A stretch of DNA of 64,000 nt from Escherichia phage GoldenSnicker: the sequence record OR896832.1; one strand, written 5' to 3'. The notes below the pieces were generated by a model. The model searched no databases, was not told where the DNA came from, and worked only from the letters and a program-made list of their open reading frames with translations. The translations under genes and the position numbers were made by a program. Numbering within the stretch: position 1 is the first letter of the stretch; each line of letters begins with the position of its first letter. Below, piece by piece: positions 11,413-64,000 of the stretch.

Positions 11413-11706
11413 TTAACCGCCTTTCATCATTGATACTGGAATTGTTTTCTGATTTGTGTATAACTGGCCTACTTCAATTTTTTCTTGAATCAACACGACG
11501 TTACAATATCCACTGTCTTTAAGTTTTCTGATAATGACTCGCTTTTGTTCGTCGGTGATAGGATTGACTGTTCTCACCAATTCACCGCAAATAATAGCAC
11601 CATCTTTACAATTGCCAGTAACTTTCATGCTACGACCGTGAACAACAACCACATCACCGTAAATCACATTTTCGTCGTCGTATTTGGTAATAACCGTGAC
11701 CGTCAT
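11413..11706 (-). CDS. hypothetical protein (97 aa)
   Basis: Track ORF; RBS GAGGGAATACATT. Confidence 0.5.
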   Translation of the reverse strand: MTVTVITKYDDENVIYGDVVVVHGRSMKVTGNCKDGAIICGELVRTVNPITDEQKRVIIRKLKDSGYCNVVLIQEKIEVGQLYTNQKTIPVSMMKGG

Positions 11707-11726
11707 AATGTATTCCCTCTAAGAAA

Positions 11727-11744
11727 GGCCGCGCAAAGCGGCCT
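11727..11744 (-). terminator. stem-loop (possible weak terminator/attenuator)
   Basis: AGGCCGC-gcaaa-GCGGCCT between 11752..12078 and 11413..11706; weak T-run. Confidence 0.4.
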
Positions 11745-11751
11745 ATGTTTA

Positions 11752-12078
11752 TTATTGTTCTACAGTATAACTGTTGTTTTCAAGCCATGCAATAACAATC
11801 TTTTCGCCAATTTCATCGAGCATTTCATCAGAGCCATATTCTTTGATGAAAATCGATGGATCGTTATTGCTTACTACGTGCTGGATCACAACATGTTCAG
11901 GAATTGCGTCTAGCAGTTCGCTATGATCATACTCATTAACGATATCTTCAACACTAACATTATTAACCAAATCAACATCATCCATAGTCACAGTAACGCG
12001 ACCGGACGGACGCAATGAATATTGGCTACTTTCAACTTCAACATGTGCACTTTCGCAAGTAACTTTCATATCAACCAT
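11752..12078 (-). CDS. hypothetical acidic protein (108 aa)
   Basis: Track ORF in co-directional array. Confidence 0.5.
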   Translation of the reverse strand: MVDMKVTCESAHVEVESSQYSLRPSGRVTVTMDDVDLVNNVSVEDIVNEYDHSELLDAIPEHVVIQHVVSNNDPSIFIKEYGSDEMLDEIGEKIVIAWLENNSYTVEQ

Positions 12079-12092
12079 AATTAATTCCTCTG

Positions 12093-13094
12093 TTAGTAAT
12101 GGCTAAAACCTTCGGTTACATCTTCAACCACATAGTAACGATGACAGCGCATTTTGGCATTCGCATAATCTTTCGGGATACTTACAACGTGACGCGGATC
12201 AACTTTACATTTAATGATTCGGCCTCGTCCACCGCCATAGTGCGGAATATAGTGTTTCGCTGCAACGTGGAGGCCATTAGAGCAAGTGCGATCATCATCT
12301 GGGTCCACGTCTTTACGCTTCATTTTAACCGTGCGCCCTGGGCTATTATCAAACGTATGCGTAAAGAAATCTTTATAATCAACATCAACACGTTTCCATG
12401 CATAGAAGCAACCATCTTCCCCGATCTCAATGTCGTTGTGCTCTAAGAAGTCAAATAGACGATCTACGGCCTTACGGCTAGGGTTTTTCTTGCACTTCTC
12501 AAAGAAGTTCAGATAGTGCGTATATGGCTTATTCTCTTTAATCGACTCCACAACTCGACGAGTCAGATTATTATCAAGAACAATATTATGATAATACACA
12601 ATACCATTTTCGATACGGAAAGCGCCGTGATAATATACTTCAACCGCTTTCTTAATGTCAATCAGCGTAATTGCTTTAATAAAATCATTCTGCTTAACTG
12701 CTTCCAGTGCTTCATTAAAGTTAACATGTGATGGATCAGCAGTATAAACAATGTCACCACATGTAATAGTAATAAACTTAGTTGAGGCTATGGCTACGAT
12801 TTTTGAGGAAGTAGTCACGGGCTTTTTTGCGCGTTCACCGCCTTTTCCTTTACTGGTTTTACGGCGTGCTTTACGTTTTTCTAGTGCCTTGCGGCCTTCC
12901 GCTACTGCGTCTTTCTGAATCAGTAATACACGGGAAGCAGTGCGACGAGATACACCAAATGCTGCCGCAAGTGCTTCGCGGGTAGTAAACTTACCTTCAC
13001 CCCACTGTTTAGCCAGTTTGATTTGTTTCGCAGAATCCAGGCATTGAACGTTACGGTCAGAGACGGTGATTTTTGCTTTAGTCATAGTATTCAT
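12093..13094 (-). CDS. rIIB: rIIB lysis-inhibition/RexAB-exclusion protein
   Basis: 333 aa; C-terminal SRLFDFLEHNDIEIGEDGCFYAWK..FDNSPGRTVKM..DDDRTCSNGLHV..DPRHVVSIP.DYANAKMRC..YVVEDVTE closely matches T4 rIIB; N-terminal HTH. Confidence 0.88.
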   Translation of the reverse strand: MNTMTKAKITVSDRNVQCLDSAKQIKLAKQWGEGKFTTREALAAAFGVSRRTASRVLLIQKDAVAEGRKALEKRKARRKTSKGKGGERAKKPVTTSSKIVAIASTKFITITCGDIVYTADPSHVNFNEALEAVKQNDFIKAITLIDIKKAVEVYYHGAFRIENGIVYYHNIVLDNNLTRRVVESIKENKPYTHYLNFFEKCKKNPSRKAVDRLFDFLEHNDIEIGEDGCFYAWKRVDVDYKDFFTHTFDNSPGRTVKMKRKDVDPDDDRTCSNGLHVAAKHYIPHYGGGRGRIIKCKVDPRHVVSIPKDYANAKMRCHRYYVVEDVTEGFSHY

Positions 13095-13147
13095 TCCTCT
13101 ATTAGTTGGGCGACTCTCGCCGCCCGATTCACATCATTATACCAGAA

Positions 13148-13279
13148 TTATTTTGCTTCTACAACCTTGCGGATTGTGCGGTCTGATACATTATAGATTC
13201 GTGCCAGTTCGCCTTTAGTCAAGCCGCGAGCGTATTGTTTACGGATGGTTTCTTTCTGGATATCGGTCAGTTTAGTCAT
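13148..13279 (-). CDS. small HTH protein (43 aa), not in ORF track
   Basis: Translated by hand: MTKLTDIQKETIRKQYARGLTKGELARIYNVSDRTIRKVVEAK; strong RBS GAGGTGATATT; between rIIA stop and rIIB start. Confidence 0.5.
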   Translation of the reverse strand: MTKLTDIQKETIRKQYARGLTKGELARIYNVSDRTIRKVVEAK

Positions 13280-13290
13280 AATATCACCTC

Positions 13291-15399
13291 TTAAAATTTA
13301 ACATTCTTAACCAGTTTCATAAAGTCTTGTGCGCGTTTGTCATTATGCAGAATACGATACCAGTTATCTACAATATCATACAGTAACGGGCTATTCTCTT
13401 TAAACTTCGCACAAACTGCTTTAATTCGTTCGTTTGCTGCCGTGAATTTTTCATCACAGATCTTTTTAGTTTCTTCGTCCATAATCCAACGAGTACGAAG
13501 GAGTAACTTGGAAACCTCTTTATTATAATGACGACCGTACAGTCTGTCAATAAATTCTGGAACACAGCGTTCTAGTTCATCGTCATGAAACAACATAGTG
13601 ATCACACCAAGATATTCGCCATACCCCAGATGATTGGTCTTAACCTTCTTAGCCAGACCAGCCAGCTTACCGCGAACAAATTCTAGCGCACATTCCAATT
13701 GTTCGTCAACGAGATATTTTTGTGTCTCGTTACGAGTAATAATATACTTTGTTACCCCGAAGTAGTCAAGCGCCGTGTGTAATGTATTTTCACTATGGAT
13801 CGATTTACGACTACGGCTTTCGAATGCATCACCTACGCGGAACATGTGCAAGCCTGATAACTCGCGAATCTCTGCCGCTTTCATGTGATGGCTGGTTTTA
13901 TGCCAACTGTCACCAATCTTTTCCATGATATACACGTTAGGCAGCTTAGGAGTCGCTTCACGTTGTGTACGCTCGGTCTTCTCCGGTTTAACTGCTTTAG
14001 CACGCAGATCATCGGCCTCAGACACTTTAATCACGGTCATTTCAGAATCATCATAATACTGTTTGATGTACTCGAAAGTCTCCATATGTTTTTCGTTGCG
14101 CTGACGGAACACAAGTACCTTTTTATTGATGCCGTATTCCTGGACCATGCCGTTAAGAGTCAGTGCACGCAGTTTCGGTTTATCGGTATCATCAATAAGA
14201 CACGTAATATCTTCTTTATGCATCCATACAAAATGCGTAATGTTGTATTGACTGCTAACGAAAGCAGGGCGCAATTTACTTATTGTGTGACGAGTACGAT
14301 ACAGAGTATACACCTGACCTTCTACGTCATTAGGCGAATCTTTACCCGCATTCACAAACTTATTATAGATTGCTACCGGATCATCCCACTTCCCGATCTT
14401 ACCCATCTTGCTAATAATATTGCGTTGAGTCGATGAATACTCGCTCATAAATTGCGCAAGTTTACGCTCTGTTTTAATGTTGGCGATCTTCTCTTTAACC
14501 TTTTCCAACATCATTTCATTGATTTCTGCAATGCGTTTTTCGATGTTCGCTTTAGTCTCAATTGACAAGTGAACTTCTTCACGCGATGGCATCAGGTCCA
14601 GATCACCCAACTCAAAATTAATGTAAATGGTCTGGTGCTGGCGGTTTACAGCTTCTAACCATGTTCCGCGAACATATTCATACGGGATCGGATACTGGAT
14701 CTTACCCATGATTGCATATACTACATAGGAATCGTTATCACGCCCATTACAAACATAATAATTATCAAAGCTAGGGAAATAATTAATTTCGATTGCATTG
14801 ATATTAGGTTTGTGTTCCCCAAAATGACGCAGTACAAATTGCGCTTCTCGATGCCATGTCTGAATATCTTTTTCTTTCACTGGAATAGTGATTTTCAGAC
14901 CATTGTCTTCATCAGTCGGTTCGTCGAAAATCTGCACCATTTTCGGCATCGAGTTTTGCACAAATGCCGTAAAGCCATAAGCGCGACCATTGTAATAGTT
15001 TACGATTGTAAAGGTGTCGGTATAGCTATAAGCAGACTTCGCACCCAAACCAAAAGACCCGATATAGTCATTAGTCTGGTCTTTTGTTGATTCAAAGTAA
15101 ACCGTAAACAGTTGTTCTAATTCTTTCTTAGACGGAATACCAGTACCATAATCACGCACAGAAAAATACGGTTCGATTGCAGTCGGTAAATGAATATCAA
15201 ACGGACGATCTAAGGTTCCGGCTTCTTTGTGAGTGTCGGTAGCATTGCACGAATACTCACGGACGCAAGCACGCTCACAATATTGATAAGTGTTCTTAGA
15301 AAGCACCATAAAAGCCTTGCTACTTGCTTTCAGTGAAAAATCAACCGCACCGCTCAAGTCACTGCCAAATACTTCTTCATTATCAATATGCATTTTCAT
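13291..15399 (-). CDS. rIIA: rIIA protein (GHKL/HATPase-like ATPase domain)
   Basis: 702 aa; N-terminal ATPase-like motifs (..DYGTGIP.., ..GSFGLGAKSAY..); size and position upstream of rIIB as in T4. Confidence 0.85.
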   Translation of the reverse strand: MKMHIDNEEVFGSDLSGAVDFSLKASSKAFMVLSKNTYQYCERACVREYSCNATDTHKEAGTLDRPFDIHLPTAIEPYFSVRDYGTGIPSKKELEQLFTVYFESTKDQTNDYIGSFGLGAKSAYSYTDTFTIVNYYNGRAYGFTAFVQNSMPKMVQIFDEPTDEDNGLKITIPVKEKDIQTWHREAQFVLRHFGEHKPNINAIEINYFPSFDNYYVCNGRDNDSYVVYAIMGKIQYPIPYEYVRGTWLEAVNRQHQTIYINFELGDLDLMPSREEVHLSIETKANIEKRIAEINEMMLEKVKEKIANIKTERKLAQFMSEYSSTQRNIISKMGKIGKWDDPVAIYNKFVNAGKDSPNDVEGQVYTLYRTRHTISKLRPAFVSSQYNITHFVWMHKEDITCLIDDTDKPKLRALTLNGMVQEYGINKKVLVFRQRNEKHMETFEYIKQYYDDSEMTVIKVSEADDLRAKAVKPEKTERTQREATPKLPNVYIMEKIGDSWHKTSHHMKAAEIRELSGLHMFRVGDAFESRSRKSIHSENTLHTALDYFGVTKYIITRNETQKYLVDEQLECALEFVRGKLAGLAKKVKTNHLGYGEYLGVITMLFHDDELERCVPEFIDRLYGRHYNKEVSKLLLRTRWIMDEETKKICDEKFTAANERIKAVCAKFKENSPLLYDIVDNWYRILHNDKRAQDFMKLVKNVKF

Positions 15400-22206: not shown

Positions 22207-22710
22207 TTAAATTAAAGAAAATTTGTAAATCTCTATCAGATCGCCGTTACACGCGTAAACTTCCTCGATCTCATCAAGGATCATGGTCGTCCCTGTCTTG
22301 TATATGCACTCGCGCTCATCTGCCAACATAGCATACAAAGACAGTCGAGTAGTCGGATTGTCATACTCTTTAGACACCACTCGGTCAATAGCATGTTCGT
22401 AATAATTCATGCAAGGCTTGGTAGGTTTTATTGCAATAATCTTTCCTGTTGCATAAACATCGGTTGCAAAGTCCTCTGCTGTTGATTGTAGTGGCGTAAA
22501 GCTCATAGGACGCTCTACAACGAAAGAATCACCCACAATTAAGGTATCCAGCTTACGGCCTTCTCTTTTGCTCACACCGCGATACAAGGCTTCATGATGC
22601 ACTAACCGTTCAGTCTTTTCGATCAATCCATTAAGGATCGACATATCGATATTTTCTTTAGAGTTCATCACTTCATCAATGATGTTAAGTTCTTCTGGTG
22701 TAAATTGCAT
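22207..22710 (-). CDS. putative ADP-ribosyltransferase (ModA/ModB-like)
   Basis: Start at ATG after GGAGGC RBS; candidate R (LYRGVSK), S-x-T (MSFTPLQS) and E-R-E motifs; position of T4 modA/modB. Confidence 0.45.
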   Translation of the reverse strand: MQFTPEELNIIDEVMNSKENIDMSILNGLIEKTERLVHHEALYRGVSKREGRKLDTLIVGDSFVVERPMSFTPLQSTAEDFATDVYATGKIIAIKPTKPCMNYYEHAIDRVVSKEYDNPTTRLSLYAMLADERECIYKTGTTMILDEIEEVYACNGDLIEIYKFSLI

Positions 22711-22742
22711 AATAAAAAGCCTCCAATCTTTCGACGGGAGGC
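22711..22742 (-). terminator. terminator-like hairpin whose 3' arm is the downstream RBS
   Basis: Minus-strand GCCTCC-CGTCGAAAGATT-GGAGGC followed by TTTTTATT ATG. Confidence 0.45.
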
Positions 22743-22778
22743 ATAATAAAACCATTATAGAGTAGTGTCAACTAATTT

Positions 22779-25281: not shown

Positions 25282-25917
25282 TCAAGCGAATGTAGAAAGC
25301 AAACGTTTTGTTTCTTTCAGTTGTCGTTCAAGATCTTTGCGTTTCTCTTTAAGTTGCATTTTAGCATTATTTCGCTGTTTTTCAACATCTTTATCAATGC
25401 TCTTATTCCAGTTATCAATATCAGAATAAGTTGGTATACCCAATTCTAGACCTAATGCGGTTGGATACAGGGTAACAGTCCATAAACCGCTAATCTTCTT
25501 AAATAGGTCGGGGTGTAGTGTACTATCTACATCTTCCGGTGTCAACTCTTTTTCTTCTTTCAGTGGTGGGATCTCGTCATATGGTTCCAGTGCATTTACT
25601 TTAATATCAGATACCTCATCAAAGAATCCGCGTACATCCGCAGGAAATACACAAGCAATTTCCCAACCGTGATCACGCAGAGAAGTAATATTTTTCACTC
25701 CCCCACCATGTGTGATGATTGATGTGACATTGCCATCAAGGTCCACCGAATTTACGAGAAATGGCTTATCGTCTGTCAGATCATTATAAAACTGTGCTTC
25801 GGCTGTAGTCATCTCCAGAAACAGATCTCGGATCGGACGACCATCAGGTGCGTTACCTTCCTTGAGAGTATAAAAGCGACTTACGATCCATTTTGGCGGT
25901 AAAGCATTAGCGATCAT
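25282..25917 (-). CDS. hypothetical protein (211 aa)
   Basis: Track ORF; RBS AGGAGATAT. Confidence 0.5.
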   Translation of the reverse strand: MIANALPPKWIVSRFYTLKEGNAPDGRPIRDLFLEMTTAEAQFYNDLTDDKPFLVNSVDLDGNVTSIITHGGGVKNITSLRDHGWEIACVFPADVRGFFDEVSDIKVNALEPYDEIPPLKEEKELTPEDVDSTLHPDLFKKISGLWTVTLYPTALGLELGIPTYSDIDNWNKSIDKDVEKQRNNAKMQLKEKRKDLERQLKETKRLLSTFA

Positions 25918-25967
25918 GTTATATCTCCTATCAAATCATTCACCAGCGCCCCGCAGGGCGCATTTTA

Positions 25968-27380
25968 TTAGAAAGTCATGTTATTTGCTAGCTCGTCGAG
26001 TTTTTCTCGTTTCTCGGCTTGCTGTGCGCTTTGTGGTTTAACTTGTGCATTCTCCTGATCTGCGATCTGGTTTGGTACTTCATACCAACGCTGATTGCCT
26101 TTTTTCACACCAACGTTAAACCGTGAATAATAGTTCTTATCACCGTAACGAGACTTGATCTGCTTCATGAGTTGGACGCCCATTTTAGCCAGGTCTTCGG
26201 TTTCGATAACACCCAACATAAAGTCGGCAGTAGCCGGAAGACCTGCTGATTCAGCGGTATCACTCATGTTAAGGTCGGAAGCATCCCAACCCGCGCGGGT
26301 AGTCTGTGCCGCAGTCCAACCAACAACATCCCACTTAACAAAAAATCCTCGCAGTTCTTCCGCAATCGCCTTAACTAGTGTGTAACTATTTTCAGAGTAT
26401 ACACGCAAGCGAGACGATGCGCAAATCCCCAGATAGTCAACAATCACAACATCAGGTTTAAACTGTTTCTTGAGTCGCAATTCATTCATTAACGCCTCAA
26501 AGTGATTGGAGTTCGCGCCACCAGTCGGATACTGCTTGATCATCAATTTTCCAACCGGACGATCTCCGATCTTCTTATTCTTAACACGCTTCATACGTGC
26601 GGAATATTCCGCAAAAGAAACATTACCATTATCCAATTCATCTAATGTAATGTCAAGCAAGTTTGCGTCGATACGTTTGGCTACGACATGCTCTGCCATC
26701 TCCATTGAGATATACAATACATCATAACCACATTCCATATAATCCGCAGCAAGAGAACATAATCCAAGCGATTTACCAACATTTACACCAGCAAGCAACA
26801 CATTTAGCGTTTTTCTTTCCGCACCTCCTTTCGTGATTTTATTCAACATCGGCAGCTTAAACGGGATCTTATTCGCCTTAGTCTGATATAGCAAGAATCG
26901 TTTTTCAAAGTCATTAAACCAGTCATGACCTACATCAGAATCAAACGTAATGGATAGTGCTTCCTGCATGATCTCAGGAATAGCACCCTCACTCGGCAAT
27001 TTCTTATTCTGTTTCTCTTTTGGTAGTTGTGCGTTCGCCTGAATCTCTAGCGCCCGTGACATTGCATTATACATGGCACGGTCACGAATAAATTTTTCGG
27101 TTTCCTTCATTAACCAATCAAGGTCTTCCGGTGTATTCTCAAGCGAATCAAGAAGAGTTTTAGCCCCTTCATATGTTGTCTGATTGCCTCTCTCCTTGTC
27201 TAAAGCAATCTGTAATGCAGTTGGCGTAGGAATGTTGGAATATTCGTCTACGTGCTTTTTAATCAGCTTATAAATCAGTTTTTCTTCGTCTTCGGTGAAG
27301 TAGTCCGCTTTAAGGTGAGGCCATACATTCGTAAAGAATGCGCCATTGTAAATCAACTGTGAAAAGATAGTTTTAATCAT
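25968..27380 (-). CDS. 41: replicative DNA helicase gp41 (DnaB-like)
   Basis: 470 aa; Walker A LLAGVNVGKS; RecA-like C-terminal domain; position between 61 and uvsX. Confidence 0.9.
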   Translation of the reverse strand: MIKTIFSQLIYNGAFFTNVWPHLKADYFTEDEEKLIYKLIKKHVDEYSNIPTPTALQIALDKERGNQTTYEGAKTLLDSLENTPEDLDWLMKETEKFIRDRAMYNAMSRALEIQANAQLPKEKQNKKLPSEGAIPEIMQEALSITFDSDVGHDWFNDFEKRFLLYQTKANKIPFKLPMLNKITKGGAERKTLNVLLAGVNVGKSLGLCSLAADYMECGYDVLYISMEMAEHVVAKRIDANLLDITLDELDNGNVSFAEYSARMKRVKNKKIGDRPVGKLMIKQYPTGGANSNHFEALMNELRLKKQFKPDVVIVDYLGICASSRLRVYSENSYTLVKAIAEELRGFFVKWDVVGWTAAQTTRAGWDASDLNMSDTAESAGLPATADFMLGVIETEDLAKMGVQLMKQIKSRYGDKNYYSRFNVGVKKGNQRWYEVPNQIADQENAQVKPQSAQQAEKREKLDELANNMTF

Positions 27381-61123: not shown

Positions 61124-61412
61124 GTTCTCGATTCTCCATATTATGCAACATAACAAACTGTTGTGCGGCATATTCCCCCATAATAAAACACTGCTTAGAA
61201 TCCATACATTTACTACGAGCATACATCTTCATAATATGGGCATGAAATTTCTGGCTGGTTTCAATGGAAGGAGATATTTTGTTTACATATACTATCATTG
61301 CACCGTCGAAATAATCAGTAAAATCACCAGTTGGATCATATTGATCAGCACTGACACTTCCGACCGCAGTCAAGCATATTGCCGCTGTTAGAGTTTTACG
61401 AATAAATGACAT
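61110..61412 (-). CDS. secreted/periplasmic protein (100 aa)
   Basis: Signal peptide MSFIRKTLTAAICLTAVGSVSA; TATAAATA late-promoter-like motif ~33 nt upstream. Confidence 0.5.
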   Translation of the reverse strand: MSFIRKTLTAAICLTAVGSVSADQYDPTGDFTDYFDGAMIVYVNKISPSIETSQKFHAHIMKMYARSKCMDSKQCFIMGEYAAQQFVMLHNMENREHEIQ

Positions 61413-61445
61413 AAGTCATTCCCCCAGATTAAAAATATTCAGTTA

Positions 61446-61453
61446 TATTTATA
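61446..61453 (-). promoter_or_regulatory. T4 late-promoter-like TATAAATA box
   Basis: Minus-strand TATAAATA (plus tatttata) 33 nt upstream of ATG at 61412. Confidence 0.4.
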
Positions 61454-61480
61454 ATCTGGGGCTTTATTTATGATTAACTC

Positions 61481-62077
61481 TTATTTGGTAGTACCGTCAA
61501 TAAAATGTTTACGGCACACAGAGACATATTTATCCTCTGCACCAACTTCTATTTGAGCACCATCGCGAATAACATTACCCTCTTTATCTACACGAAGGAC
61601 CATTGTTGCTTTCTTGCCACAATGACAAATACCCTTCATTTCGACCAGTTTATCAGCAAATGCCATTAATGCCGCAGATCCTTCAAATAGATTGCCCTGA
61701 AAGTCGGTGCGAAGGCCATAGCACAGTACAGGGATATTTGCATCATCGACAAGCGCACACAAGCCTAAAACATGCTCTTTAGTCATAAATTGGGCTTCAT
61801 CTACAAATACAGCATCAGGACGCCATCGATCCGGTCTACGCTTACCTAACGATTCACGATAAACCAAATCGAAAAGATCATCCGATTTAGTGAAGGTGAT
61901 CGCTGGAGCACTTAGACCAATTCGGGAAACAACTTCACTTTCTGAATCTCGATTATCAATCGCTGGCTTAAGAATTAATACTCGCATATCACGTTCGGTA
62001 TAGTTATAAGCACTTTGTAACAGAGAAGTTGATTTGCCAGCGTTCATAGATGCATAGTAGAAATATAGTTGCGCCAT
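61481..62077 (-). CDS. tk: thymidine kinase
   Basis: 198 aa; Walker A MNAGKST, C-terminal CHCGKKA zinc ribbon; size as T4 Tk. Confidence 0.88.
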   Translation of the reverse strand: MAQLYFYYASMNAGKSTSLLQSAYNYTERDMRVLILKPAIDNRDSESEVVSRIGLSAPAITFTKSDDLFDLVYRESLGKRRPDRWRPDAVFVDEAQFMTKEHVLGLCALVDDANIPVLCYGLRTDFQGNLFEGSAALMAFADKLVEMKGICHCGKKATMVLRVDKEGNVIRDGAQIEVGAEDKYVSVCRKHFIDGTTK

Positions 62078-62370
62078 TAATTAATCTCCAAAAATCCAGC
62101 AAGACCTAAACCGATATAAGTCCAGATACAAAGGAAAAAGAAGCAAACACCCATAGCAAAGATAAATCCGCGTAGTGTCTTTGGATAACCTACCCAATAT
62201 TCCCGACCATCTTCTAACCGGATCAGCTTATTTCCTTGAGAGTCCATATCAATTACAACATGTTTATTTCTGGATTGTAACAGATATTGCTTGACAATCT
62301 CAATACCCGCCATAATAACAATAACGAAATTGAAAGTCCACATAACAAGGTTAATGGTAGTCTCAAGCAT
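62077..62370 (-). CDS. hypothetical membrane protein (97 aa)
   Basis: Track ORF; two hydrophobic helices. Confidence 0.5.
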   Translation of the reverse strand: MLETTINLVMWTFNFVIVIMAGIEIVKQYLLQSRNKHVVIDMDSQGNKLIRLEDGREYWVGYPKTLRGFIFAMGVCFFFLCIWTYIGLGLAGFLEIN

Positions 62371-62605
62371 TTTCTATCACCTCCACCCAATCAGGCGTTT
62401 CCTGAAATACTCCTTCGCCTTCGTGGTGGATGCATCCTTTATTGCTACAATACATCCACCAATCCCACATTCCCCACGGTAAACGCTGCATATCGTCGTT
62501 ACAGCAAGTGAAGACAATAGGCCAACCACATCTAACACATCGGCAGTTTTCCTTCATGTGAGCGGTATTAGGCTTCTTCATAGATGACTCCAATATAATC
62601 GACAT
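62363..62605 (-). CDS. Cys-rich small protein (80 aa)
   Basis: Track ORF; CRCVRCGW..CCNDD..C..GC. Confidence 0.45.
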   Translation of the reverse strand: MSIILESSMKKPNTAHMKENCRCVRCGWPIVFTCCNDDMQRLPWGMWDWWMYCSNKGCIHHEGEGVFQETPDWVEVIENA

Positions 62606-62772
62606 TTACATTTAGGGCAATGCGGTTCTTTAATATAATACCCGTCTGTCTTTGGAACACTAACAGGAGCGGTTTTTATATTGTATTCCGTGAAACAACG
62701 AAAACAAGTTACGTTTTCCACAGACTGACGTTTCACCCAATAACCGGAATAGAGGTCATTTTTATTTGTCAT
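62578..62772 (-). CDS. small zinc-ribbon-like protein (64 aa)
   Basis: Start at internal ATG after GGTGGTGG; CFRC..CPKCKC motifs. Confidence 0.4.
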   Translation of the reverse strand: MTNKNDLYSGYWVKRQSVENVTCFRCFTEYNIKTAPVSVPKTDGYYIKEPHCPKCKCRLYWSHL

Positions 62773-63217
62773 ATTCCACCACCACAATGTTAATGTCTGG
62801 AGTAGCAATATTAATGATTTCTTCTACACATTCCCACTCAAGGCCACCGATACCGCAACCGATTTTAGGGATATAGAAAGGCTGTATAGCACCTTCAAAA
62901 ACATCATTGAGAGTCTCAAATCCTTTCAGGATAGCACCATATTCAGCATTTGGACCCGGTCGGAATTGGGTATAGAGATTCACCCCGCACCAGTTATAAC
63001 CATTAACTTGATGCGTCCAGACACTAAACCCACCCAACTTTTCTACCTTACCGCGAGAAGTTTGCTTGTCAATCTCTAACGCTTGCGGGAACTCTTTCGC
63101 GATATCCGCAGCAATACCAGCGCCCATAGTATGAAAACAATTACAACCATGAATTAAATGACCGTTTCCTTGTTTAAACAGGGCGATGAGATCGCCCTTT
63201 ACAGTATCAATAATCAT
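62762..63217 (-). CDS. macro-domain protein (ADP-ribose binding/hydrolase-like)
   Basis: 151 aa; ..HGCNCFHTMGAGIAADIA.. and ..IGCGIGGLEW.. match macro-domain glycine-rich pockets; RBS AGAGGTTTATAAT. Confidence 0.7.
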   Translation of the reverse strand: MIIDTVKGDLIALFKQGNGHLIHGCNCFHTMGAGIAADIAKEFPQALEIDKQTSRGKVEKLGGFSVWTHQVNGYNWCGVNLYTQFRPGPNAEYGAILKGFETLNDVFEGAIQPFYIPKIGCGIGGLEWECVEEIINIATPDINIVVVEYDK

Positions 63218-63232
63218 ATTATAAACCTCTAA

Positions 63233-63592
63233 TTAGTCACGGGAAGACAACCCAGCCATAAAACGGCTTAACAGTGTGTCGCGATAAGCAAAGCATAATT
63301 GCTTATCAGGGGCAGTATCACAAAGGTTGCGTTTTGTTTTAGCAAAGCTGGCAATACTCAGATCCCACGCTCGATTTTTTCGTTTTTCGTCTCGACCTTG
63401 TTTGTATGCTTCATCAAGTTCGAGCGCGATAAAATCACTACACATGTTATCATCATCACAGAAAGTTTTAATGATCTTTTTGTTGATCTCAAATCCTTTG
63501 TATTCAAACTTTGGATAAGGGCGCTCATTACTAGCAAGCGCACCAGCAGAGAACATCATAGCAATCATAGCAATTATTGTCAACTTTTTCAT
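63233..63592 (-). CDS. secreted/periplasmic protein (119 aa)
   Basis: Signal peptide MKKLTIIAMIAMMFSAGALA; four cysteines; directly downstream of SLT-like gene. Confidence 0.5.
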   Translation of the reverse strand: MKKLTIIAMIAMMFSAGALASNERPYPKFEYKGFEINKKIIKTFCDDDNMCSDFIALELDEAYKQGRDEKRKNRAWDLSIASFAKTKRNLCDTAPDKQLCFAYRDTLLSRFMAGLSSRD

Positions 63593-63599
63593 ATATTCC

Positions 63600-64000
63600 T
63601 CAATAGCGTTTAGTTTTAAGAATGCCTTTACTCTTTAGATGGTTAGCCTTTTTTAGTACGTCATCAGCATAGCCTAACCCAGCTTTATAGTTCCATCCAG
63701 CATTGTAAGAAGCTAGCGCGAGTCGGATATTACCGTTTCTAACATCCAGCCAGTATGCTAACTCATCCATCGCGTAGAATGCAGAAACCTCGCGATTCAT
63801 GATAAAGTTGATAGTCTGGAGATCACTCATTTTAACACCGCGCTTTGCATTTTTCGCTTTCACCGTTTTAAGGTAATTTTGAAATAATCCATAAGCATGA
63901 TGATTTTTCTTTGGTGCTAAGTTTGCACCCGCGCTTGATTCTTGCCATGCGATACCCGCCAGGATGTGACCTAAACCCTTTCCGTTATAGCGAATATTCG
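63600..64000 (-). CDS. lytic transglycosylase-like protein (SLT domain), N-terminus beyond window end
   Basis: Frame open from 64000 to stop at 63600; ..WQESSAG..YGLFQ..SYNAGWN.. SLT catalytic motifs (E-S, GLxQ, AYNxG). Confidence 0.6.
   Translation of the reverse strand, partial: NIRYNGKGLGHILAGIAWQESSAGANLAPKKNHHAYGLFQNYLKTVKAKNAKRGVKMSDLQTINFIMNREVSAFYAMDELAYWLDVRNGNIRLALASYNAGWNYKAGLGYADDVLKKANHLKSKGILKTKRY

Follow-up and report, generated by a model that had tools for sequence, protein, structure and literature searches.

Tk.4 of an RB49-like Krischvirus phage, a macrodomain protein that probably belongs with the AdfM-type factors countering DarTG2

Escherichia phage GoldenSnicker (OR896832.1), of which a stretch of 64,000 nucleotides was analysed here (the window), encodes a small protein with macro-domain signatures and also a putative ADP-ribosyltransferase (ART). 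The question raised by this locus is which ADP-ribosylation, if any, the macrodomain protein would reverse: that of an ADP-ribosylating host defense, or that by which the phage itself modifies its host, both of which were proposed in the initial annotation. The window is DNA of a Krischvirus, i.e. an RB49-like T4 relative, with 97-99% identity to W115, RB49 and about 55 other phages of that genus. The locus itself comprises the following features:

62762..63217, minus strand: tk.4 / adfM ortholog, a 151-aa single-domain macrodomain protein, predicted ADP-ribosyl glycohydrolase
63226..63230, minus strand: Shine-Dalgarno AGAGG, read from the sequence, 8 nt 5' of the tk.4 ATG and directly past the vs stop codon at 63233..63235
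63233..63592, minus strand: vs, valyl-tRNA synthetase modifier (PHROG 1256, 1.8e-33), the neighbour upstream of tk.4

The tk.4 open reading frame is intact and starts with ATG, and its stop is overlapped, by 11 nt, by the ATG of the next gene. The Shine-Dalgarno sequence placed right after the vs stop, together with this overlap, makes tk.4 a link in a tightly packed array, and the vs-tk.4-tk array is probably translationally coupled. A scan of 61300..64000 for sigma70-type promoters and for terminators gave 11 sites against 7.7±2.6 expected, which is not above background, and no dedicated tk.4 promoter is claimed from it. A near-consensus sigma70 promoter (TTGACA-17-TATGAT with TG, 63583..63555) falls within the first codons of the vs reading frame, an odd position for the annotated start. 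Two small zinc-binding proteins are encoded between tk.4 and tk, at 62578..62808 (minus strand; Pfam Phage_zn_bind_2, 1.7e-23) and at 62363..62605 (minus strand; Phage_zn_bind, 1e-33); the true start of the former is probably the ATG at 62772 and not the TTG at 62808. In T4, no gene was depleted more strongly than vs in minimal medium (HIDEN-SEQ preprint, bioRxiv 10.1101/2025.11.20.689424).

The order tk, small genes, tk.4, vs is common to the window, T4 and RB49, and the window Tk.4 matches T4 Tk.4 over its full length with 44% identity (E 5e-45). On identity and gene order taken together, the window gene is the syntenic ortholog of T4 tk.4/adfM. The two proteins have the same size and the same slot between vs and the tk.x/tk genes, and they share N26, the N-L-Y-T-Q-F motif and the glycine loops; however, they have diverged by 56%, and the second loop reads GCGIGGLEW in the window protein and GAGIGKGNW in that of T4. 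Gene and family are already known, since an A1pp or macro motif was annotated in RB49 and T4 two decades ago: the RB49 gene is listed as tk.4, "contains A1pp phosphatase motif", that of W115 as "macro domain protein", and a translated match of 100% identity in phage Delraymugoa as "phosphatase".

Homologs of the tk.4-type macrodomain occur in 2,734 phage records from many host genera, including Pseudomonas, Vibrio and rV5-like phages. The nearest relatives outside Krischvirus are macrodomains of the rV5-like Vequintavirus (Murica, EduardKellenberger), with 67-69% identity, and the T-even Tk.4 proteins are 44-50% identical to the window Tk.4 despite its T4-syntenic slot. Since the rV5-like proteins are nearer than those of the T-evens, yet the slot is that of T4, the sequences suggest that the tk.4 allele has been laterally replaced between phage families. 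More distant homologs (32-40% identity) in some Acinetobacter and Vibrio phages adjoin genes for nicotinamide phosphoribosyltransferase or ribose-phosphate pyrophosphokinase, a hint of some connection with NAD+ salvage in these phages. Around a chromosomal homolog in Pelagimonas, neither DarT nor any other informative neighbour is encoded.

That the window Tk.4 is a macrodomain can be stated with confidence. It matches Pfam PF01661 (Macro) with 28.1 bits against a gathering cut-off of 22, over profile positions 1-118 of 118, and PHROG 335 at 2.5e-62, and its PDB sequence matches include DarG, BT1257, TARG1, SCO6735 and Poa1p. An AlphaFold2 model, built from 65 homologs with the T4 row left out, has a pLDDT of 96.2 and a pTM of 0.90; Foldseek aligns this model with 188 PDB macrodomain entries at E<=0.001, with top TM scores of 0.78-0.84, among them 0.78/0.84 to TARG1 and 0.79 to Thermus aquaticus DarG. 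Model, structural matches and alignment agree on a three-layer alpha/beta macro fold with two glycine-rich ADP-ribose-binding loops, and both the GxG loop (31-36) and the loop at 119-125 are invariant in the family alignment. The initial annotation had called a macro-domain protein from the motifs HGCNCFHTMGAGIA (residues 23-36) and IGCGIGGLEW (residues 119-128); both are found in the product, and the call is borne out by profile, PDB and model evidence alike.

Within the macrodomains, the sole NCBIfam (NF048014) and PADLOC match of the window Tk.4 is to the N-terminal macrodomain of DarG (2.9e-13 and 1.5e-14), covering positions of about 2-141 of the 338 in the DarG model. As it has no counterpart of the C-terminal half that binds DarT, its NF048014 score (49.8 bits) falls far short of the equivalog cut-off, 250. 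The protein has the same fold as the DarG macrodomains of T. aquaticus (5M31/5M3E) and M. tuberculosis (5M3I), with TM scores of 0.72-0.79, and has in common with them the conserved Asn (DarG N22) and a GxGxGGL[DE]W-like loop. Unlike DarG, it carries Gln in place of Lys80 and lacks the C-terminal DarT-binding domain, and the gene has vs and small zinc-binding protein genes, not darT, as its neighbours. By these comparisons the window Tk.4 looks like an orphan antitoxin catalytic domain, and as such would parallel AdfN (T4 30.3), the published NADAR protein that counters DarTG1.

The features that bear on its catalytic chemistry are three short groups of codons within tk.4:

63110..63151, minus strand: codons of H23-A36 (HGCNCFHTMGAGIA), the first ADP-ribose-binding loop, including H23, N26 and the GxG motif
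62966..62980, minus strand: codons of N80-L-Y82-T83-Q84, with Q84 at the catalytic Lys position of TARG1 (K84) and DarG (K80), equivalent to SCO6735 Gln85
62834..62863, minus strand: codons of I119-W128 (IGCGIGGLEW), the second (phosphate-binding) glycine-rich loop, with G120/G122 equivalent to SCO6735 G126/G128

In an alignment of 116 Tk.4 homologs, residues G24, N26, C27, M31, G34, A36, D50, N80, Y82, P117, I119, G120 and G122 are invariant, H23 is present in 112 and Q84 in 114, and G125 and W128 are kept in at least 90%. The position of Q84 was assigned by profile-versus-PDB alignment, MAFFT and BLASTP against SCO6735; in the profile alignment its column is that of TARG1 K84, and it is also that of the first Lys of the DarG sequence PTKKHW, which is K80 of T. 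aquaticus DarG by chain numbering. With Gln in the Lys column, the Tk.4 clade, including T4 Tk.4 (NLYTQF), is thus without the catalytic lysine of DarG and TARG1. Human TARG1/OARD1 (4J5R) is the best structural match and aligns without gaps through the catalytic strand, but its catalytic dyad K84/D125 corresponds to Q84/G124 in the window Tk.4.

A glutamine at the catalytic Lys position is found in SCO6735 (PDB 5E3B) and in BT1257 (2FG1), which are stand-alone single domains of the ALC1-like class. SCO6735 was reached in the PDB search with BT1257 as the query and not with a DarG fragment, and its sequence was rebuilt from PDB alignments, in which the numbering agrees (H24, K34, Q85, K89, G126, G128). 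In direct alignment, at 26% identity by BLASTP, H23, N26, Q84, G120 and G122 of the window Tk.4 correspond to SCO6735 H24, N27, Q85, G126 and G128, so that the Asn and His partners of the glutamine and the two loop glycines are kept; N26 is the counterpart of T. aquaticus DarG N22 as well. SCO6735 differs in being cellular and not viral, in having a 5-6-residue insertion after the Gln, and in the lysines K34 and K89, which contact DNA phosphates and in place of which the window Tk.4 has A33 and the G88 region. The SCO6735 paper reports that the enzyme hydrolyzes thymidine-linked ADPr-DNA and, in vivo, gives protection from DarT, and that mutation of H24, N27, Q85, G126 or G128 abolished or strongly reduced dT-ADPr-DNA hydrolase activity: Q85A and Q85E were inactive, the correct rotamer of Q85 is fixed by N27, G128E lowers activity, and the loss in H24Y was put down to disrupted structure. 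In its residues the active site of the window Tk.4 is accordingly of the SCO6735 (Gln) type and not the Lys type, from which it is predicted that point mutants of Q84, N26 and G122 should abolish counter-defense. Two further residues of the Tk.4 clade, D50 (116/116) and K60 (K or R in 115/116), with codons at 63068..63070 and 63038..63040, have no counterpart in SCO6735, DarG or TARG1. BT1257 of Bacteroides thetaiotaomicron (PDB 2FG1/2AFC, "unknown function") is a close SCO6735 ortholog (E 2e-52) and, since it shares the NMIGQH motif, is probably also a thymidine-ADPr-DNA hydrolase.

Experiments on function come from relatives. In a November 2025 preprint a T4 transposon library was grown on DarTG2-expressing E. 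coli, and only tk.4 emerged as a significant hit; clean deletion of the gene made T4 sensitive to DarTG2, the defect of tk.4 mutants was seen under DarTG2 only, and the gene was renamed adfM, for anti-DarT factor Macrodomain (bioRxiv 10.1101/2025.11.20.689424). This T4 evidence, in preprint form, is of a purely genetic kind. A PhiKZ-like macrodomain, independently named AdfM, strips DarT2-made ADP-ribose from ssDNA thymidine in vitro (Cell Rep 2026, PMC13309987). This protein, PhiKZ gp104, resembles Tk.4 as a phage-encoded single macrodomain, one that defeats DarTG2, but it is imported into the phage nucleus (PMC13309987) and is of the Lys type (FPTKDNW in the PhiKZ-like ortholog, which is 28% identical to the window Tk.4). 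Given Gln as against Lys, and the 28% identity, the two proteins named AdfM seem on their sequences to form distinct lineages that differ in the catalytic residue. The searchable text of either AdfM-naming paper contains no mention of SCO6735, TARG1 or glutamine; the distinction between the two published lineages appears unremarked, and is the only modestly new point here. A tentative reading, to which we give slightly less than an even chance, is that phages have recruited anti-DarT2 macrodomains at least two times, once as the Gln-type, water-mediated Tk.4 clade and once as the Lys-type PhiKZ AdfM. On this reading the very large Gln-type clade of T-even, Krischvirus, rV5 and Felix-like phages would be a hydrolase of the SCO6735 kind that works without a lysine intermediate, whereas cellular DarG, like PhiKZ AdfM, is Lys-type. 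With a different catalytic chemistry, the Gln-type clade might have its own preferences among DNA-T, RNA-U and protein Glu/Asp as substrates, or might inhibit by binding as well.

On this evidence the window Tk.4 is likely, in our view, to be an orphan ADP-ribosyl glycohydrolase of the AdfM type, one that uses a Gln-type site to clear phage DNA of DarT2 marks. Krischvirus tk.4 would supply a stand-alone macrodomain enzyme, made early in infection from within the vs-tk.4-tk array. DarT2, the toxin of a host DarTG2 system, ADP-ribosylates thymidines in TNTC motifs of the phage ssDNA and so blocks replication; Tk.4 would take up the ADP-ribose in its glycine-rich cleft and hydrolyze the ribose-thymine bond, with Gln84, held by Asn26, positioning the distal ribose for attack by water, and normal DNA would be restored. 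The protein would thus act as an "orphan antitoxin" without the toxin-binding half of DarG. Fold, orthology, synteny and active-site residues were established on the window Tk.4 itself. The anti-DarTG2 phenotype is known from T4 and the Gln-type hydrolysis of dT-ADPr-DNA from SCO6735, and both would extend to the window protein by analogy. Because tk.4/adfM is the single gene that T4 needs against DarTG2, the idea in the initial annotation that the macro domain may counter an ADP-ribosylating defense is supported through the ortholog. Against this reading count the replaced DNA-contacting lysines; moreover, since the clade has no catalytic Lys, dT-ADPr catalysis is an extrapolation from the 26%-identical SCO6735, and since macrodomains often accept several kinds of substrate in vitro, the physiological substrate of the window Tk.4 could differ.

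The ART proposed as a partner of Tk.4 lies elsewhere in the window:

22207..22710, minus strand: ModA/ModB-type mono-ADP-ribosyltransferase, 167 aa, identified by PHROG 832, tblastn, motif alignment and synteny

It matches PHROG 832, "RNA polymerase ADP-ribosylase", at 5e-21, and annotated modA/modB genes by tblastn at E 4e-8 to 4e-10 (4e-8 in a local tblastn with T4 ModB); it has no match in Pfam or among PDB sequences. Residues R44 (YRG), S70 (SFT) and E132-R-E134 are the same in T4 ModA and ModB, so the R-S-ExE motif is intact, and the gene order dda-dda.1-srd-mod is that of T4. By profile, motif and gene order it is a genuine Mod-type ART, as the initial annotation had supposed. It is similar in size to the T4 proteins but only 25-27% identical to them, and the window has one gene where T4 has the modA-modB pair. 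The longest reading frame (182 aa) begins at 22755 and so has 15 further codons (22711..22755, minus strand) at its 5' end; homologs and annotations start at the ATG at 22710, and similarity to other phages begins around residue 13-16.

A pairing of this ART with Tk.4 as writer and eraser within the phage is tempting but unsupported. The two are "alongside" one another in being encoded by the same genome; they are not neighbours, as about 40 kb and dozens of genes separate them and they belong to different gene arrays. The marks of a paired module, adjacency or co-transcription and co-distribution, were accordingly not found for mod and tk.4: against the 2,734 records with a Tk.4-type macrodomain, 1,016 have a ModB-type ART and 1,222 an Alt-type one, and the macrodomain occurs without detectable Mod or Alt in 184 Pseudomonas and 134 Vibrio records, with 294 macrodomain records against 30 in Salmonella; Pseudomonas, Vibrio, most Salmonella and the rV5-like phages are macrodomain-only. 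Mod and Alt ADP-ribosylate arginine, a linkage that is cleaved by ARH/DraG-type enzymes and that no known macrodomain hydrolyzes. Although a Mod-type ART with an intact motif is present, and Alt and another Alt-like ART occur in RB49, distance, distribution and linkage together leave the tuning of the phage's own host modification without support; the T4 mutants, moreover, were defective under DarTG2 only, and we regard it as very improbable that the window Tk.4 reverses or tunes ADP-ribosylation by Mod or by an Alt elsewhere in the genome. The same DarTG2-specific score of tk.4 in the T4 screens bears on the proposal that Tk.4 counters, instead of or besides DarT2, some other defense based on ADP-ribosylation or NAD-derived signals, such as RNA ADP-ribosylation or a Thoeris-like system. 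ALC1-like macrodomains are often promiscuous, SCO6735 acting on protein substrates too, and the very wide phage distribution suggests a common threat; but CmdTAC, an mRNA ADP-ribosyltransferase, is known from the literature to still strongly block wild-type, tk.4-bearing T4, so Tk.4 is not a universal eraser, and this proposal is quite unlikely.

Two other explanations concern what the protein does at the molecular level. Neutralization of DarT2 might be mainly by binding of the toxin or of the modified DNA, as a stoichiometric inhibitor and not by catalysis, and for this speak the Tk.4 clade's lack of the canonical catalytic Lys, the inhibition of DarT in vitro by the dead SCO6735 Q85A, which exceeded that by dead DarG or TARG1 (SCO6735 paper), and the published case of ICP1 AdfB, which counters DarT by direct interaction. 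A protein of 151 aa that matches DarG positions 2-141 of 338 has, however, no toxin-binding domain, and near-invariant N26, Q84, G120 and G122 fit a catalytic pocket better than an interface co-evolving with diverse toxins; inhibition chiefly by binding is therefore unlikely. A housekeeping enzyme for ADP-ribose-1''-phosphate, O-acetyl-ADP-ribose or the like, perhaps tied to NAD+ recycling, would agree with the "phosphatase, A1pp motif" annotation in RB49 and T4, with the likeness in sequence and structure to yeast Poa1p, with the Nampt or PRPP-synthase genes that adjoin some distant homologs, and with a 2022 survey that proposed soluble ADPr derivatives as the preferred substrates of viral macrodomains. 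We consider such a role improbable, since no NAD-salvage or Tpt1/KptA gene is found near the window tk.4, the T4 phenotype is specific to DarTG2, and the "phosphatase" label was carried over from the domain name without experiment. Phosphatase as a function was rejected on this last ground, and AdfM-type anti-DarT2 factor would be the better label for Krischvirus tk.4.

If Tk.4 does erase DarT2 marks, as we prefer to think, RB49-like phages that encode it would be expected to resist E. coli carrying DarTG2, which is of interest for phage therapy; a literature search found no study of Krischvirus phages against DarTG. The DarT2 motif TNTC is not avoided in the window (2,485 sites, O/E 1.04 from analytic expectations), so that the genome would be fully exposed and an eraser useful, a weak circumstantial argument. 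Homologs of T4 AdfA (61.2), AdfN (30.3) and Alt were not found within the window by local tblastn. In RB49 (NC_005066) three intervals outside the region covered by the window (11489..12313, 12391..14442 and 25609..26088) hold between them alt, a second ART that resembles Alt in its C-terminal part, and a homolog of 30.3. With tk.4 and a 30.3 homolog together, RB49-type phages are probably equipped to erase the marks of DarT1 as well as those of DarT2, and to make three ARTs besides.

Among the tetranucleotides of the whole window, depletion is strongest for the palindromes GGCC (O/E 0.57), AGCT (0.60) and GTAC (0.73), and enrichment for CCAG and CTGG (1.44). The bias suggests that restriction sites are avoided; the cytosine of this phage, in contrast to that of T4, is presumably unmodified.
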